Assembly (NCBI GenBank): GCA_965248445.1
Contig: CBDFJG010000002.1
Location: 672,001 to 736,000, forward strand
Length of the DNA: 64,000 nucleotides
Direction: 5' to 3'
Source of the DNA: Planctomycetota bacterium
Lineage (GTDB): Bacteria > Planctomycetota > JAJSAM01 > JAJVHW01
Program-made: the position numbers and the translations under genes
Notes under the pieces: model-generated
Seen by the model: only the letters and a program-made list of their open reading frames with translations
Databases searched by the model: none
Told to the model about the DNA's origin: nothing
In this document: positions 45,480 to 50,954 of the stretch, in pieces
How positions within the stretch are numbered: position 1 is the stretch's first letter
Layout: each line of letters starts with the position of its first letter

Positions 45480-47021
45480 ATGCGATCGCGTCTGACTCAC
45501 TGGGCGGCCGTGCTGACTGTCGCCGCCGTCACGTCACTGACTCACGCCGACACGCAGCAGTCGGGCGAGATCCCGATGCTGACGCCGACGGCGGGGTTCT
45601 CGGCTACGTCCCTGTTCACCGTCGGTGAGGCCGTCGGCGCCTACCGGCCGCCCGGCATCCTCGACGGGCTGGGAGCGTACGTGCACGACGCGAACACGAT
45701 CCGCGTGCTCGCCAATCACGAGCTGTCCGACGACGACGGATACGCGTACGCGCTCCGAAATGGCACCCAACTCACCGGCGCACGGATCAGCTACTTCGAT
45801 ATCGACCGCCGCACACGGCAGATCTGCGCCGCCGGCCTCGCCTACGGCCGCGTTTACGACCGCAGCGGCAAAGAGGTGACCGCCGCGACGCAGATCAATG
45901 AGGCGAGTCAGACCGGTGACGGCCTGGCCCGCTTCTGCTCCGGCCGCCTCGTGAACGCCGGCGAGCGCGGGTTCGTGGACACCGTGTATTTCGCGGGTGA
46001 AGAGGTCTCCGACTCGTCACACGCACACGGCGGCGGCGAGTGGGCCCTCGATGTCGCGAACGGCGACCTGTGGGCGTGCCCGGAACTCGGACGCGCGAAG
46101 TGGGAGAACGTCGCGCCGCTCGACGCCGGTAGCAGCAAGCACGTCGCTCTGCTGATGTGCGACGACACAGCGGGTGCACCGCTCTTCCTGTGGGTCGGCA
46201 AGAAGTCGAAGAAGGGGAACTTCCTGCAGCGCAACGGGCTCGCCAAGGGCAAGCTGTACGCCTGGATCGCAGACGGGTCGGCGCGCGACGCGGGAGACTT
46301 CAACGGCACAGGCGCGACGCTCGCCGGGTCGTTCGTACGCGTCAAGGCGCGCAACCCGCGTCAGGCGCGCCGTGGCGGGTACGACAACCGCGGATACCTG
46401 GACACCTCCACCCTTCGGCGCGAGGTCGCGAAGCTGCGCGCGTTCGAGTTCGCGCGCCCCGAAGACGTGCACGACAACCCGTTCGACGGCACGCAGGCCG
46501 TGTTCGCGACGACGGGCTCGAGCGACTACCCGGACGACCGGTGGGGCCAGGTGATCCGCGCCGAAGTGGACTTCACCAAGCTGAGGAAGCCGCGTGCGAC
46601 GCTGACGATCCTCTACGACGGCGACGAGTTGCCGGAGCCCGACGAGGGAATCCGAAACCCGGACAACCTGGTCTGGTCCGAGGACGGGTTCATCTACGTG
46701 CAGGAGGACGCGTCGCGGAGCGCGTTCGGGACCGTGTCGGACATCGAGGCATCGGTGTGGGCCCTGGATCCCGTGTTTCGGACCGCAACGCGGATCGCCG
46801 AGATGAACCGGTCCGCCGTACCGTCCGGCCAGACCGACGACGACGCCGGAGAGTTCGGGAACTGGGAGTCGTCCGGCGTGCTCGACGTGACGAGGCTGTT
46901 CGAGACAGTCCCCGGCGAGCGGCTGCTCATGCTCGACGTGCAGGCGCATGGCATCGACCTCGACAGCGCCGACCTCGACCAGGGCGGTCAACTGCTGCTG
47001 CTCTCGATCGGCGCGCCCTGA
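45480..47021 (+). CDS. secreted PhoX/DUF839-like beta-propeller phosphatase
   Basis: Signal peptide; DGLG, NHE, FCSG, GRAKWEN, RPED, PDNL, QED, WESSG, VQAH. Confidence 0.8.
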   Translation: MRSRLTHWAAVLTVAAVTSLTHADTQQSGEIPMLTPTAGFSATSLFTVGEAVGAYRPPGILDGLGAYVHDANTIRVLANHELSDDDGYAYALRNGTQLTGARISYFDIDRRTRQICAAGLAYGRVYDRSGKEVTAATQINEASQTGDGLARFCSGRLVNAGERGFVDTVYFAGEEVSDSSHAHGGGEWALDVANGDLWACPELGRAKWENVAPLDAGSSKHVALLMCDDTAGAPLFLWVGKKSKKGNFLQRNGLAKGKLYAWIADGSARDAGDFNGTGATLAGSFVRVKARNPRQARRGGYDNRGYLDTSTLRREVAKLRAFEFARPEDVHDNPFDGTQAVFATTGSSDYPDDRWGQVIRAEVDFTKLRKPRATLTILYDGDELPEPDEGIRNPDNLVWSEDGFIYVQEDASRSAFGTVSDIEASVWALDPVFRTATRIAEMNRSAVPSGQTDDDAGEFGNWESSGVLDVTRLFETVPGERLLMLDVQAHGIDLDSADLDQGGQLLLLSIGAP

Positions 47022-47076
47022 CGCGGAGGGGAACCCGATAGCCTCTGCTCCGCGTCGAACGTTGGGAGACCACGGC

Positions 47077-48117
47077 ATGCGGACCTCGACCTGGATCAGT
47101 CTTCTCGCCTGCACCGCGCTCGTCAGCGCACTCCCCCTGGCCTCCGCGCAGGAGAAGCCGGCGCCGCTCTGGCCGCAGGAGGGTTACGGGGCGCTTCGCT
47201 CGGCTGCCGCAAAGGCCAAGACGAGCGGGAGCCGCCTGCTGCTCGGCCTCTCCGGCGGCGACCACTGATGACCCTCGTTCAAGTTCGAGAGCGGTTCGCT
47301 CTCGCCCATGCTCGAGGACGCTCGCGTCGTCAAGGCCGCTGAGCCGTACACGCGCCTGTTGATCCGCGTCCCCGAGGCGTACCTGCTGCTGCAGCATTTC
47401 GAGGACGCCACGCGTCCGGGCCTGTTCGTGCTCGATGCGGACGGCAACCCCGTGGACTCGATCTCGTTCACCGGGCTGAGCGGCGAGGACGGCGCGAAGC
47501 AGATCGCCGAGTGGCTCGACGAGACCCGCGAGACGCCTGCGCTCGCAACCATCCGGCTGAAGATCGAAGCCAAGGACATGGACGTGATTGCGGACGCCGT
47601 CGAGGAACTCGAGGGCGTCGAATGGGCCGCGGAGACGGACGAGTCGTTCGACGTGGCCGTCACCGCCGGCACGGCGACACCCACGCACGTGGTCGCAGCC
47701 GTCAAGAAGGCGGGCGGCAGTGCGACCGTCATCGAGCCCGTCGCGGTCACGTTCACAGCGCGACGCAAGGGCGCCGAGTGGAACGCGGGCGACGTCTCCG
47801 CGCTGCCCGGCGTGCAGGCGGTCACGACCGGCGAGCGGCCGGTCGCCTGGTGCGCGCCGTTCTTGCTCGACGGCAAGGCACTCACCGCGGCAGCGCCCGG
47901 GTGGGTGGCCGACGTCGAGGAGACGGTCCATCGCCTGAAGGACTATCCATCGACACCGAGCGGCGCCCGCGTCGCGCGCTACGCGCTCGCGGTGAACGGC
48001 GTCCTGGCGGTGTTCCCCGACATCGCGAAGAGCAGGATCACGGTCGTTGCGCGCCCCGCCGTCACTAAGAAGAGGGTCGCGGACGCCCTCGTCAGCGCCG
48101 GAGTGAAGCCCAGGTAG
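47077..48117 (+). CDS. putative secreted thioredoxin-like selenoprotein (tandem UGA at codons 64-65) with C-terminal HMA-like domains, 346 aa
   Basis: Upstream ORF (signal peptide plus Trx N-terminus) and ORF 47308..48117 are in the same frame, separated only by TGATGA at 47266-71; hairpin downstream. Confidence 0.7.
47272..47317 (+). promoter_or_regulatory. bacterial SECIS-like hairpin
   Basis: CGAGAGCG-GTT-CGCTCTCG (47286-47304) with lower stem CCTCG/CGAGG. Confidence 0.6.
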
Positions 48118-48247
48118 CCACGCTCGTTTGCGAGGGACCTGGATCCCGGCGATGCTCGCTCAGGAGCCCGTGCTCGGGCAGTCGGCGCATCGCCAACGGG
48201 TGGCATTCGCGCCTCGGCCGCCCCCTCGGGCCGGGGAGGGAGTTCGG

Positions 48248-49231
48248 ATGCGTACCTACCAAGCGGCGGCGTTCGCCATCATCGCAGGCTGTGCCGTGCT
48301 GTTCGGCGGAGCCACGGAGACCTCACGCGCCTCGACCGGCGACCTGAGCAAGCAGCAGGTCAAGCAGCTCGAGAAGGAGTTCAACCAGATCGTGAAGCAG
48401 CACAAGCAGTCGGGGAACAACAATTTCAAGGTGTTCAAACAGGGCATCGGGAACATCAACAAGGACGTCAAGTCGGGGACTGCGGATCCGTTCCAGATCT
48501 TCTTCGACACGACGAACGACCTGGACTTCATCTTCGACGGCAGCCTGTCGTCCACGCGCAACGCGATCGCGGGGATCGAGGGCGTGTCGTCGAGCTTCTA
48601 CGCCGCGAACACCGGCGTGCCGGACTCGATCCCCGAACTCAGTGGCGCTCCCGGGAGTCTCATCGACGACGCCGTCGGGAGCCTGAACGCAAACAACGGC
48701 AAGCTGCTCACCAAGATCCGCAAGCTCATCTCGAAGCTCGAGAAGGCTGCGTGCAAGGAGGACATTCCGCCCTTCACCGGACTGCGCGGCATCCCGGAGT
48801 TCCAGGCCCCGCACGTGGAGCGCACCGGCTTCTTCGGCAGCGGCATGACCGAGAACCGCGCGAATATCATCTTCACGACCTCCGGTGGGCAGACCTCGAG
48901 CCGCGTTTTCTCCGTGCTGGGCTACTTCGACTTCGATCCCCTCGACAACGACGAGACGTGGACCGGACTGTTCGATCCGGACGGCACCGAGCTCGACAGG
49001 CAAGAGCTGACGCCGTCGACGAACGGGGTGTTCCGCGGAGGCTTCTCCACAAGCAGTTCCGGGACCAAGAACATCGGGGTGGACATCTTCGATCCCGACG
49101 ACGACAGCCTGATCTTCGCGGACGGCTTCGAGTCCGGGGACACCTCGGCCTGGACCAACGAGCAGGGGCCGATCAGACCCGTTCAGGCTCGATCTCGTCC
49201 TGCCCCGTGTGGGCTGCGCAGACTGGGCTAG
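48248..49231 (+). CDS. secreted hypothetical protein with IFADGFESGDTSAW motif
   Basis: Signal peptide; GGAGG-like RBS; motif near the C-terminus. Confidence 0.7.
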   Translation: MRTYQAAAFAIIAGCAVLFGGATETSRASTGDLSKQQVKQLEKEFNQIVKQHKQSGNNNFKVFKQGIGNINKDVKSGTADPFQIFFDTTNDLDFIFDGSLSSTRNAIAGIEGVSSSFYAANTGVPDSIPELSGAPGSLIDDAVGSLNANNGKLLTKIRKLISKLEKAACKEDIPPFTGLRGIPEFQAPHVERTGFFGSGMTENRANIIFTTSGGQTSSRVFSVLGYFDFDPLDNDETWTGLFDPDGTELDRQELTPSTNGVFRGGFSTSSSGTKNIGVDIFDPDDDSLIFADGFESGDTSAWTNEQGPIRPVQARSRPAPCGLRRLG

Positions 49232-49298
49232 CATTCTTGGACGAGGAAGGGCCTCCGATCCGGGGACGCACGCTGCGTGGGATAGGGAGGATGGACCG

Positions 49299-50954
49299 AT
49301 GAAGGTCGTCAAGTCGCTCACAGGATTCGTCCTGTCAACCGGGCTCGTGCTGCTGCTGTCTGCGCCGGGCCTCTCGCATGGTGAAGAAGAGCACCGGTGC
49401 ATCGAGGACGCCTCGCTGCATCGACCGGAGGTCGGGGCGCCGCTGCCAGAAGCGGAGGGTGGCGTCGTCGTCAGCATCTCGGAGACCTGCGAGTTCGTGA
49501 AGGTGATCGTTCACGAGGTCAGCAATGAGGTCGCGCTGAACGTGACGCTTCAGCGCGAGGATCAGGTGTTCGAGATGGGCGCCGTGCCCGGGTCCGAGGA
49601 AGGCCCGCGCGTGCTGGTGCGCTACAGCTGCGAAGGCGACACGCTGCCAGGCGAGGTCGAGTCCGTCGAGGCGTTCTTCGGTTTCGCGGTCCTCGTCAAG
49701 AATGCGGAGGGCCAGGTCGTCCTGCGCGGCGAGGTGCCGACCCTCGAGTGCGAAGAAGAAGAAGAGGGCGATGGCGAGGGTGACGGCGAAGGCGACGGCG
49801 AGGATGAAGGTGACGGCGAGCACGAGGAGCCCGAGACCGAGATGGGCCACTTCGAACTCGAGCGCCCCGAAGGCGGACTCGAGCCGGAGGCCAACGGCGG
49901 CATCGCGATCTGGAAGCGCGGCGACCGCGAGAAGTTCGTGCTCGAACTCTGCGGCTTCGAACCGGAGTCCCGCGTCCTGATCTACATCAGCGACGGTGAA
50001 GAGGAGTTCGCCCTGGTAGACGACCTCGGCATCGACGGCGAAGGATGTGCACGCTTCTTCCGCGACACCGGCGAAGAGCAAGAGCTCCCGCTCGGACTGT
50101 CGCTCGAGCAGTTGGAAGAGCGCCGCCTGCAGATCCGTGACGGCGAGGGCAACGTGCTGCTGGTCGGCCGAGTGCCGGAACTCGAGGACGAGAAGCACGA
50201 GGAGACCGAGAAGTCCCGCGGGCCGCTCACGCGTCCGGAGAACGCTCCGAACCGCGAGGCCGAAGGCGCCGTCGGCGTTTGGCGCCGCGGCGAGCGCGAA
50301 AAGTTCGACGTCGAGGTGGGCGGTTTCGCCCCCGAGACGGGACTGCTTCTCTTCATCGCGAACGCCGAGAGCGAGTTCGTCTTGGTGGACGACCTGCGCA
50401 CCGGCGAGCGCGGCGGCGCTGAGATCTTCCGCATGAACTTCGAGGGCGGCGAGTTGCCGCTCGGCGTGGACTCGCTCGATGAACTGGCCGGCCGCGACAT
50501 CCAGATCCGCAATCTGGATGAGCAGGTCGTGCTGGTCGGCGAGGTCCCCGCGTTCCGCGCGGATGACGACGGTGATGTGCGCGAGCGTGAGACCCACCGC
50601 GACGAGGTCACCGGCGCCAAGATCGGAGTGCGGGTGCTCATCAAGGTCTCCAAGGGCCGCGAGAAGCTCTCGTTCGAGATGAAGCACCTGCCCAAGGGCT
50701 TCTCGATCAACAAGCGCCGCCGCGGCGGCAGCAGGGAACAGGTCAGCCTGTTTATCGCGGACGAGCTGGGCACGATGACGGAGGTCGGCAGCACGAGAGT
50801 CCGCCGCCGCCGCACGGCGAAGCTCCGCTGGAACAGCAGGAAGGGCCACACGCTGCCCCTCGGCGTGACATCGATCCGCGACCTCTCGGGTCGCGCATAC
50901 GAAGTGAGAATCGGCGACACCGCCGTTGCCGAGGGGTTCATCCCATTCTTCTAG
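49299..50954 (+). CDS. secreted acidic protein with four tandem ~120-aa repeats
   Basis: GGAGG RBS, signal peptide, repeated LPLG..S...L.GR...IR...G.V.L.G.VP; EGDG linker. Confidence 0.8.
   Translation: MKVVKSLTGFVLSTGLVLLLSAPGLSHGEEEHRCIEDASLHRPEVGAPLPEAEGGVVVSISETCEFVKVIVHEVSNEVALNVTLQREDQVFEMGAVPGSEEGPRVLVRYSCEGDTLPGEVESVEAFFGFAVLVKNAEGQVVLRGEVPTLECEEEEEGDGEGDGEGDGEDEGDGEHEEPETEMGHFELERPEGGLEPEANGGIAIWKRGDREKFVLELCGFEPESRVLIYISDGEEEFALVDDLGIDGEGCARFFRDTGEEQELPLGLSLEQLEERRLQIRDGEGNVLLVGRVPELEDEKHEETEKSRGPLTRPENAPNREAEGAVGVWRRGEREKFDVEVGGFAPETGLLLFIANAESEFVLVDDLRTGERGGAEIFRMNFEGGELPLGVDSLDELAGRDIQIRNLDEQVVLVGEVPAFRADDDGDVRERETHRDEVTGAKIGVRVLIKVSKGREKLSFEMKHLPKGFSINKRRRGGSREQVSLFIADELGTMTEVGSTRVRRRRTAKLRWNSRKGHTLPLGVTSIRDLSGRAYEVRIGDTAVAEGFIPFF

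Follow-up and report, generated by a model that had tools for sequence, protein, structure and literature searches.

The gene and its surroundings

The window, meaning the whole 64,000-nucleotide stretch of planctomycete DNA that was analysed, contains a gene on the forward strand that begins with an ATG at 47077, passes through two consecutive TGA codons at 47266-47271, and ends with a TAG at 48115-48117. The TGA pair accounts for the only two in-frame stops between this ATG and the TAG. A preliminary description of this DNA had proposed such a single frame, and translation with TGA as U confirmed it, giving a protein 346 aa long. We call this the UU gene (Table 1). It had also been stated that gene callers split the gene in two. 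We observed this in the ORF listing made with translation table 11, where one piece stops at 47268 and a 269-aa ORF (47308-48117) is listed separately downstream of it, and the protein database holds the 269-aa downstream piece as an entry (P0002). As a check on the support for TGATGA in the underlying data, we compared positions 46900-48300 with Logan contigs from four runs and found no differences; these are assembled contigs rather than raw reads and come from one sample, possibly the source of the assembly, so that the agreement is not independent.

Upstream of the UU gene and ending 55 nt before it is a gene predicted to encode a PhoX-like secreted phosphatase (45480-47021, +; PF05787, E 2e-8). 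Downstream are two long ORFs (48128-49231 and 49209-50954, both +) that appear to encode secreted proteins and have no Pfam family at a meaningful E-value. A search of 46900-48300 against Rfam with E up to 1 gave no match. Between 45300 and 49400 we found no promoter-like site and one terminator-like site at chance level.

Table 1. Features of the UU gene, given as positions in the window
Feature	Positions	Strand	Basis
Probable Shine-Dalgarno sequence GGGAGA, ATG 7 nt downstream	47064..47069	+	Sequence; presumed function
Whole gene, 346 aa with both TGA as Sec	47077..48117	+	Translation, AlphaFold2 model
Predicted signal peptide, about 24 aa, A-S-A end	47077..47148	+	By eye from sequence; leaders of homologues similarly hydrophobic
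Thioredoxin-fold domain (Thioredoxin_7/DsbH-like)	47155..47538	+	VIA-align, Foldseek
Tandem in-frame TGA TGA, predicted Sec64-Sec65	47266..47271	+	Homologous sites, Cys-Cys proteins, alignment
Bacterial SECIS-type hairpin, 8-bp stem, GUU loop, loop G at 47294	47286..47304	+	Folding, conservation, constraints of PMC13188914 Fig. 2A
Pro114, presumed cis-Pro loop position	47416..47418	+	Invariant in alignments A1, A2 and A5; aligns with Pro of 2ju5 and 1vrs
HMA-fold domain 1, no CxxC	47533..47742	+	Model 129-198: Z 9.1, rmsd 1.9-2.2, 67-68 aligned (VIA-align)
HMA-fold domain 2 (the least direct test of the three), no CxxC	47731..47913	+	Secondary-structure order as in the other repeats
HMA-fold domain 3, no CxxC	47914..48114	+	Model 256-322, VIA-align

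Domain architecture of the predicted protein

We modelled residues 25-346 with AlphaFold2 using 87 sequences, with U modelled as C, and obtained a mean pLDDT of 96.5 and a pTM of 0.92. Residues 3-130 of the model match DsbH, DsbD-gamma, and thioredoxins, with VIA-align scores of Z 11.4 against DsbH 2ju5 (rmsd 3.1, 118 aligned) and Z 10.9 against the DsbD C-domain 1vrs (rmsd 2.8, 110 aligned). The earlier alignment of U64 with the first Cys of a CxxC motif was reproduced against DsbH 2ju5, a weak match at E 0.096 that was the best in a sequence search of solved structures. This places the redox residue where the active-site helix begins, and Pro114 is located at what we take to be the cis-Pro loop of thioredoxins.

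The protein had previously been labelled as thioredoxin-fold. This holds for the N-terminal domain; the C-terminal two thirds, which had not been described, are predicted to be comprised of three HMA-fold domains. The third aligns with 4a48 (Z 11.5, rmsd 1.2, 64 aligned) and with CopZ 1cpz (Z 11.0, rmsd 1.3), and the second is included in a two-domain match of model residues 190-322 to CopA 2rml (Z 9.5, rmsd 6.5). The CxxC metal-binding loop is missing, and the sole Cys past the signal peptide, C258, is unconserved. Neither Pfam nor NCBIfam contains a family for the read-through protein. NF041199 (cut-off 300 bits) gave no match for P0001, and relatives scored 23-42 bits over the PDZ part only.

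Conservation of the TGA pair

Searches for homologues yielded 82 pooled rows that cover the TGA site and two that do not. The 82 rows reduce to 54 distinct sites drawn from 42 genomes in 20 families and from metagenome contigs; the genomes are related, so the counts are not independent. The codons at these sites are TGATGA in 53 of the 54 and TGCTGA in one. The TGA-TGA form is present in all 42 genomes and recurs across proteins that are just 30-55% identical.

Among 60 relatives, three matched with two TGA codons in each, and scans of genome and metagenome contigs yielded 6 and 11 loci; 20 of the 21 loci that we inspected span the site and all 20 have TGATGA. A profile search of 401 genomes returned 27 matches with two TGA codons in 25 genomes and one further strong match that begins past the site, and four weaker matches proved on inspection to be ordinary proteins of the thioredoxin-like type. 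Class-level searches of 17, 56, 251, and 40 genomes, which partly overlap, added 17 more carrier genomes. The gene was not found with P0001 or A5 in any of seven genomes from the same family (76-93% complete), pointing to a patchy distribution. The copy in a genome from the same order (L014) is identical to the L020 copy.

In a first search of the protein database, all 12 homologues start past the TGA-TGA site. Since callers split UU genes, the family is invisible in protein databases. Of the database proteins that do span the site, 13 carry Cys-Cys and a single one carries WW, while one cluster shows His-Leu there and another lacks the motif; the Cys-Cys proteins are known as protein sequences only, with codons and organisms unseen, and queries read as CC favour such matches. 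The WW protein (P0090, from JGI) also has W at three other redox positions, and its W residues correspond to TGA codons in L104 and L105, its relatives at the DNA level. P0090 is therefore probably a gene call in which TGA was read by code 4. Tryptophan codons at the site had been named as evidence against selenocysteine; homologues have TGA-TGA, TGC-TGA, or Cys-Cys, and no Trp codons were found. Both the 13 Cys-Cys proteins and the one TGC-TGA site in DNA align with the UGA pair, and the residues directly after the site are conserved in the Cys-Cys proteins.

The preliminary description had proposed a UxxS redox motif. The vicinal pair stood up, and the Ser is not invariant: position 4 of the motif is S in 33 sites, T in 9, and another residue in 12, and is never Cys (n = 54). 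We therefore rejected UxxS as the defining motif and consider the vicinal pair to be the conserved feature.

The sole TGC-TGA copy (L096, G430:C236) shares its genome with a UU copy (L092), and a partial selA match is located approximately 7 kb away from it on its contig. Three other copies appear damaged. One has an insertion-sequence gene upstream (L101, G648), one has an upstream stop and a broken stem (L109, G599), and one has an internal deletion with loss of the hairpin GT (L059, G073).

We placed the variants in a quick midpoint-rooted tree of 125 columns and 69 rows, from which L032 and L058 were omitted as too short and in which P0072 and P0033 were not included. The CU row and a nine-row CC clade (support 94) were both nested with UU rows. 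Another three CC rows, on long branches, belonged to the other subfamily. Although this tree is short, unfinished, and midpoint-rooted, the placement of CU and CC rows among UU rows suggests that UU is the older state and has been lost repeatedly.

Selenocysteine machinery and other candidate selenoproteins

The host genome (5.4 Mb, 92% complete) contains selA, selB, and selD over their cut-offs and a tRNA-Sec, so that the machinery whose absence had been raised as an objection is present. The selD gene itself has one TGA, and simple folding did not clearly reveal a hairpin for it. Across carrier genomes selA was found in 41 of 42 (23/24, 17/17, and the host genome), and the rate across the phylum was 285 of 401. 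The carrier lacking selA is 80% complete and has matches to selB and tRNA-Sec. In the genome with damaged copy L109 (G599), selB was not matched and no tRNA-Sec passed the cut-off.

We scanned the host genome for junctions, defined as stops with coding-like sequence on both sides. A hairpin with a GT loop was found at 23 of 145 TGA junctions, compared with 2/175 for TAG and 0/25 for TAA. From two listings, of 28 and 23, we chose 20 candidates by eye; 19 match thioredoxin, AhpD, or DUF3179 families, many of them below curated cut-offs as fragments. The host genome contains at least 19 further candidate selenoprotein genes (within L064-L083), mostly thioredoxin-fold and many apparently exported. 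One candidate without a Pfam or NCBIfam match (L082, C4:1210341(+)) has Cys-TGA in QLDEEFC-U-T followed by a hairpin, a context that we presume to resemble selenoprotein N. Two others are Trx7/PDZ-type NF041199 genes with UxxU, namely UVPU and UDPU (L075, C3:1539463(+); L076, C3:1611745(-)); this family is listed as CxxU with one Sec in the part of the catalogue consulted (PMC13188914).

A conserved hairpin follows the two codons

Both coordinates and folding bear out the earlier claim of a perfect 8-bp hairpin. The 5' arm CGAGAGCG (47286-93) and the 3' arm CGCTCTCG (47297-304) enclose a GTT loop (47294-96), and the loop G is 22 nt from the second UGA and 25 nt from the first. The model for bacterial SECIS elements, as given in the sections consulted of PMC13188914, has a loop of 3-9 nt with G first, a stem of 4-16 bp, a spacing of 16-37 nt, and an energy of -7.5 kcal/mol or lower. 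The hairpin of the UU gene, with 8 bp, a GUU loop, spacings of 22 and 25 nt, and an energy of -11.8 kcal/mol, fits this model. Its folding energy was modestly better than that of shuffled sequences (z -1.1 to -2.6 over four windows), and the case for it therefore rests on conservation.

At 52 of the 54 sites the GT is enclosed by a stem with 5 or more bp and no mismatch, in 51 cases at 22 nt and in one at 25 nt from the second codon, and so the concern that relatives might lack the hairpin did not materialize. The two sites that fail the stem test are L109 and L059, which are damaged in other ways. The exception in spacing (L048, G278) has one extra codon that places the loop 25 and 28 nt from its UGAs and represents a natural spacing variant. 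The GU of the loop is fixed even though its position is synonymous: the loop codon is GGT in all 34 sites with Gly and CGT in all 17 with Arg, while nearby control codons are so in 7/53 and 3/41 cases and usage across the host genome is 12% for GGT and 10% for CGT. Similarly, Leu at +10 is CTC in 48/49 sites versus 15/42 at +14. An alignment of 18 sequences had 94.4% of stem cells paired, versus 31-63% in slid controls; two-sided changes occur in three of the eight pairs, and covariation is thin. RNAalifold predicted the same stem unprompted. Among 298 in-frame TGATGA candidates in the host genome, a GT hairpin follows only the UU gene and one implausible frame. From these sequence comparisons we conclude that the hairpin is under selection at the RNA level.

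One hairpin and two UGA codons

Fifteen such single-UGA candidate genes in the host genome have the GT 18-34 nt past the UGA, with two at 22 nt and three at 25 nt. Both tandem codons are thus at spacings that the host organism appears to use, and a single hairpin can plausibly serve both. The stem starts 17 nt after the first codon and 14 nt after the second, longer than the 11 nt given for E. coli fdhF in the portion of PMC8659212 that was available, and should therefore remain folded outside the ribosome at both steps. With a recoding efficiency of 30-40% per UGA, the E. coli value in the part of PMC4513850 consulted, two consecutive UGAs could by our own arithmetic yield just 10-15% or so of full-length product. 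This possibly low yield and a spacing beyond that of fdhF count against the double-Sec reading, as do the His-Leu cluster and the cluster without the motif.

Together, codon conservation, Cys-Cys homologues, the machinery, the hairpin, and the predicted fold make it very probable that the UU gene encodes one exported protein in which Sec64 and Sec65 are both decoded as selenocysteine. The adjacent-Sec reading first made of this DNA is therefore upheld as a prediction. Decoding would proceed with a SelB-GTP-Sec-tRNA complex on the single hairpin reading the first UGA, 25 nt from the loop, and, one translocation later, a second complex on the same hairpin reading the second UGA at 22 nt. The protein would then be exported with two selenols placed in the active-site loop of the thioredoxin domain, where they would most likely alternate between the reduced state and a vicinal diselenide. 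Both export and this redox chemistry are predicted from the sequence. The Sec-Sec domain may then serve as a periplasmic redox module for thiol or selenol sites that bind soft metals.

Family forms, metal context, and possible role

Two main forms account for most of the 54 sites: in 17 the protein is extended by a long tail at the C-terminus, and in 28 a PDZ-like domain, recognized with a crude pattern, precedes the UU domain. The remaining 9 are of neither form. Fourteen have a metal context: five are fused to an HMA(UxxU) domain, six lie beside such a gene, and three are beside zf-CopZ and MerTP-like genes, one of these with MerR. The other 40, mostly judged within 1.5-kb flanks, have none. 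The window gene has no informative neighbour, and its neighbours show no link to metals; its own HMA-fold domains are without metal-binding cysteines. For family members of the Trx-HMA type we rejected a conserved operon after scanning 92 of 151 candidate neighbour ORFs, which were mostly unrelated.

The fused forms vary. Three proteins (L052, L054, and L055, in G371, G397, and G245) join the UU domain to HMA(UxxU) and a CxxC thioredoxin and have four in-frame TGA codons. A cluster in two genomes (L086 in G235, L043 in G306) encodes PDZ-Trx(UU), HMA(UxxU)-Trx(UxxC), and a second PDZ-Trx(UU). A further arrangement, PDZ-Trx(UU)-HMA(UHGU)-Trx(UxxC) in a single frame, is found in L104 (G559:C72), L105 (G496:C43), and P0090. 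L104 and L105 each have five in-frame TGA codons at redox or metal positions in this one frame, with a hairpin after each group; the loop after the HMA pair is of the GGGCU type, not GU.

The HMA folds in the protein and the metal-linked fusions and neighbours suggest a link to metals, and we tentatively view the family as a periplasmic selenol redox module connected to soft-metal handling, a role that we would put slightly short of an even chance. A different function with the same decoding is that the Sec-Sec pair directly chelates Hg(II), Cu(I), Ag(I), or similar soft ions and is not a redox couple. This would agree with the heavy-metal binding to which CC and CU motifs have been tied (bioRxiv 10.1101/2022.07.06.499078, in the part consulted), with the MerTP, zf-CopZ, MerR, and HMA(UxxU) neighbours or fusions at those 14 sites, and with the absence of a conserved resolving residue. 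It fits less well with the invariant Pro at the thioredoxin cis-Pro position and with a window gene that has no metal neighbours. The cis-Pro of thioredoxins disfavours metal binding at the active site. We consider direct chelation unlikely and favour the putative redox module over it. The wider proposal, that Planctomycetota use one coding-region SECIS twice, for successive codons, to make a vicinal Sec-Sec site in a thioredoxin-fold domain at the core of a periplasmic selenium relay for mercury- or copper-like soft metals, with fused forms of up to five Sec in UU, UxxU, and UxxC motifs, is rather doubtful, a shade less so than chelation.

Other readings of the TGA pair

The decoding itself could differ from the double-Sec reading. 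One of the two UGAs, probably the second, might encode Sec, with near-cognate readthrough or a Cys-loaded tRNA-Sec mostly placing Cys, Trp, or some other residue at the other and so producing an X-U site. The sole mixed site, L096, is TGC-TGA with its hairpin unmoved, which ties the hairpin to the second UGA; many catalogued families have CU motifs (PMC13188914, as far as consulted), and double insertion may be inefficient. Yet TGC would suffice for Cys and the first codon is TGA in nearly every site, the 25-nt spacing is found among single-UGA candidates of the host, ARAGORN detected only one tRNA with a UCA anticodon in the host genome, and the CU and CC rows are nested within UU rows in the quick tree. 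We regard a single Sec as improbable.

Still less credible is a true double stop that separates a short exported peptide, perhaps with Sec as its last residue, from a downstream protein with its own start. TGA is the main stop in the host (1303 of 2071 long ORFs, with a second TGA following in 16), and an ATG lies within TGATGA. Against this, the first in-frame start after the site varies from codon 3 to codon 69 with no common position, and we rejected a conserved restart on this basis; the frame of the overlapping ATG is 2-254 aa with no common length. The stops would cut inside what is one thioredoxin domain in the model, leaving the signal peptide on the first piece only. With no shared restart or length and a cut within one domain, we consider it unlikely that the gene is split. 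The frame continues uninterrupted past the site in homologues with Cys-Cys or Cys-TGA, the former with the conserved residues after the site noted above. A pseudogene, an assembly error, or genome-wide reassignment of TGA can practically be dismissed: even with three copies that look damaged, the same two codons persist in 42 genomes at the low identities given above, contigs from four runs agree, and TGA terminates most host genes.

Relation to known selenoproteins

The double-Sec reading places the gene in what is, judged from sequence, most likely a real and uncatalogued selenoprotein family spread across uncultured Planctomycetota, with two adjacent UGA codons and one in-frame hairpin. A 2026 catalogue of 119 prokaryotic families lists UxxU, UxxxxU, and CU motifs with at most 2-3 Sec and no UU in the part consulted (PMC13188914). 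We found no bacterial UU selenoprotein in the literature searched, the coverage of which stops short of Haft and Tolstoy 2025 and the BSepDB family table S2, and no mention of consecutive Sec in the available portions of PMC12013277 and PMC13326102; UxxU is mentioned in that of PMC2398784.

The excerpt of PMC7539508 gives the GUGUU motif of algal PDI_e as the first report of consecutive Sec, with no bacterial homologue found. By that description, PDI_e resembles the UU gene as a PDI-like protein with a thioredoxin fold and a predicted Sec-Sec pair. It differs in being eukaryotic, with a SECIS in the 3'UTR whose position is not tied to the codon, whereas the UU gene is bacterial with its hairpin inside the ORF, and in its motif, GUGUU against G-x-x-T-U-U, with G-G-D-H-U-U in the window gene. 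Bacterial thioredoxin-fold selenoproteins that use SelB and an in-ORF SECIS include Trx UxxC (PF00085), Trx7/PDZ (NF041199), and VPGUxxT (NF041383) (PMC13188914 Table 1, seen in part). Like the UU gene, they have this fold, a first redox residue encoded by UGA, a downstream hairpin whose G-U loop is 16-37 nt away, homologues with Cys, and a genome with Sec machinery; unlike them, the UU gene has two adjacent UGAs, no conserved resolving residue, and three HMA-fold domains lacking Cys. Bacterial UxxU proteins (Prx-like UxxU, the metal-binding NF041115, and the FmdB family) also have two close UGAs before a hairpin, but 9 nt apart rather than adjacent, and HMA(UxxU) domains like those of NF041115 are fused to or beside members of the UU family. 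SaoL, SaoB, SaoC, and HgcA resemble the UU family in having a vicinal Cys/Sec pair that is replaced by CC in some homologues, and this pair is proposed to meet heavy metals; these proteins have other folds and one Sec per pair, whereas the UU family has UU as a rule and CU only exceptionally (bioRxiv 10.1101/2022.07.06.499078, from the text at hand).

Bacterial Sec insertion is thought to be inefficient and bound to a set distance between hairpin and UGA. UGA-UGA kept in dozens of genomes thus provides a natural test of one SelB-binding hairpin serving two consecutive codons, probes the spacing tolerance of planctomycete SelB, and has a bearing on making multi-Sec proteins in bacteria. If the prediction is true, the family would contain a naturally occurring vicinal diselenide within a thioredoxin fold, for which the CU and CC relatives are ready controls. 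The five in-frame TGA codons of the L104 and L105 fusions, if all are Sec, would exceed the 2-3 Sec given in the consulted part of the catalogue (PMC13188914).
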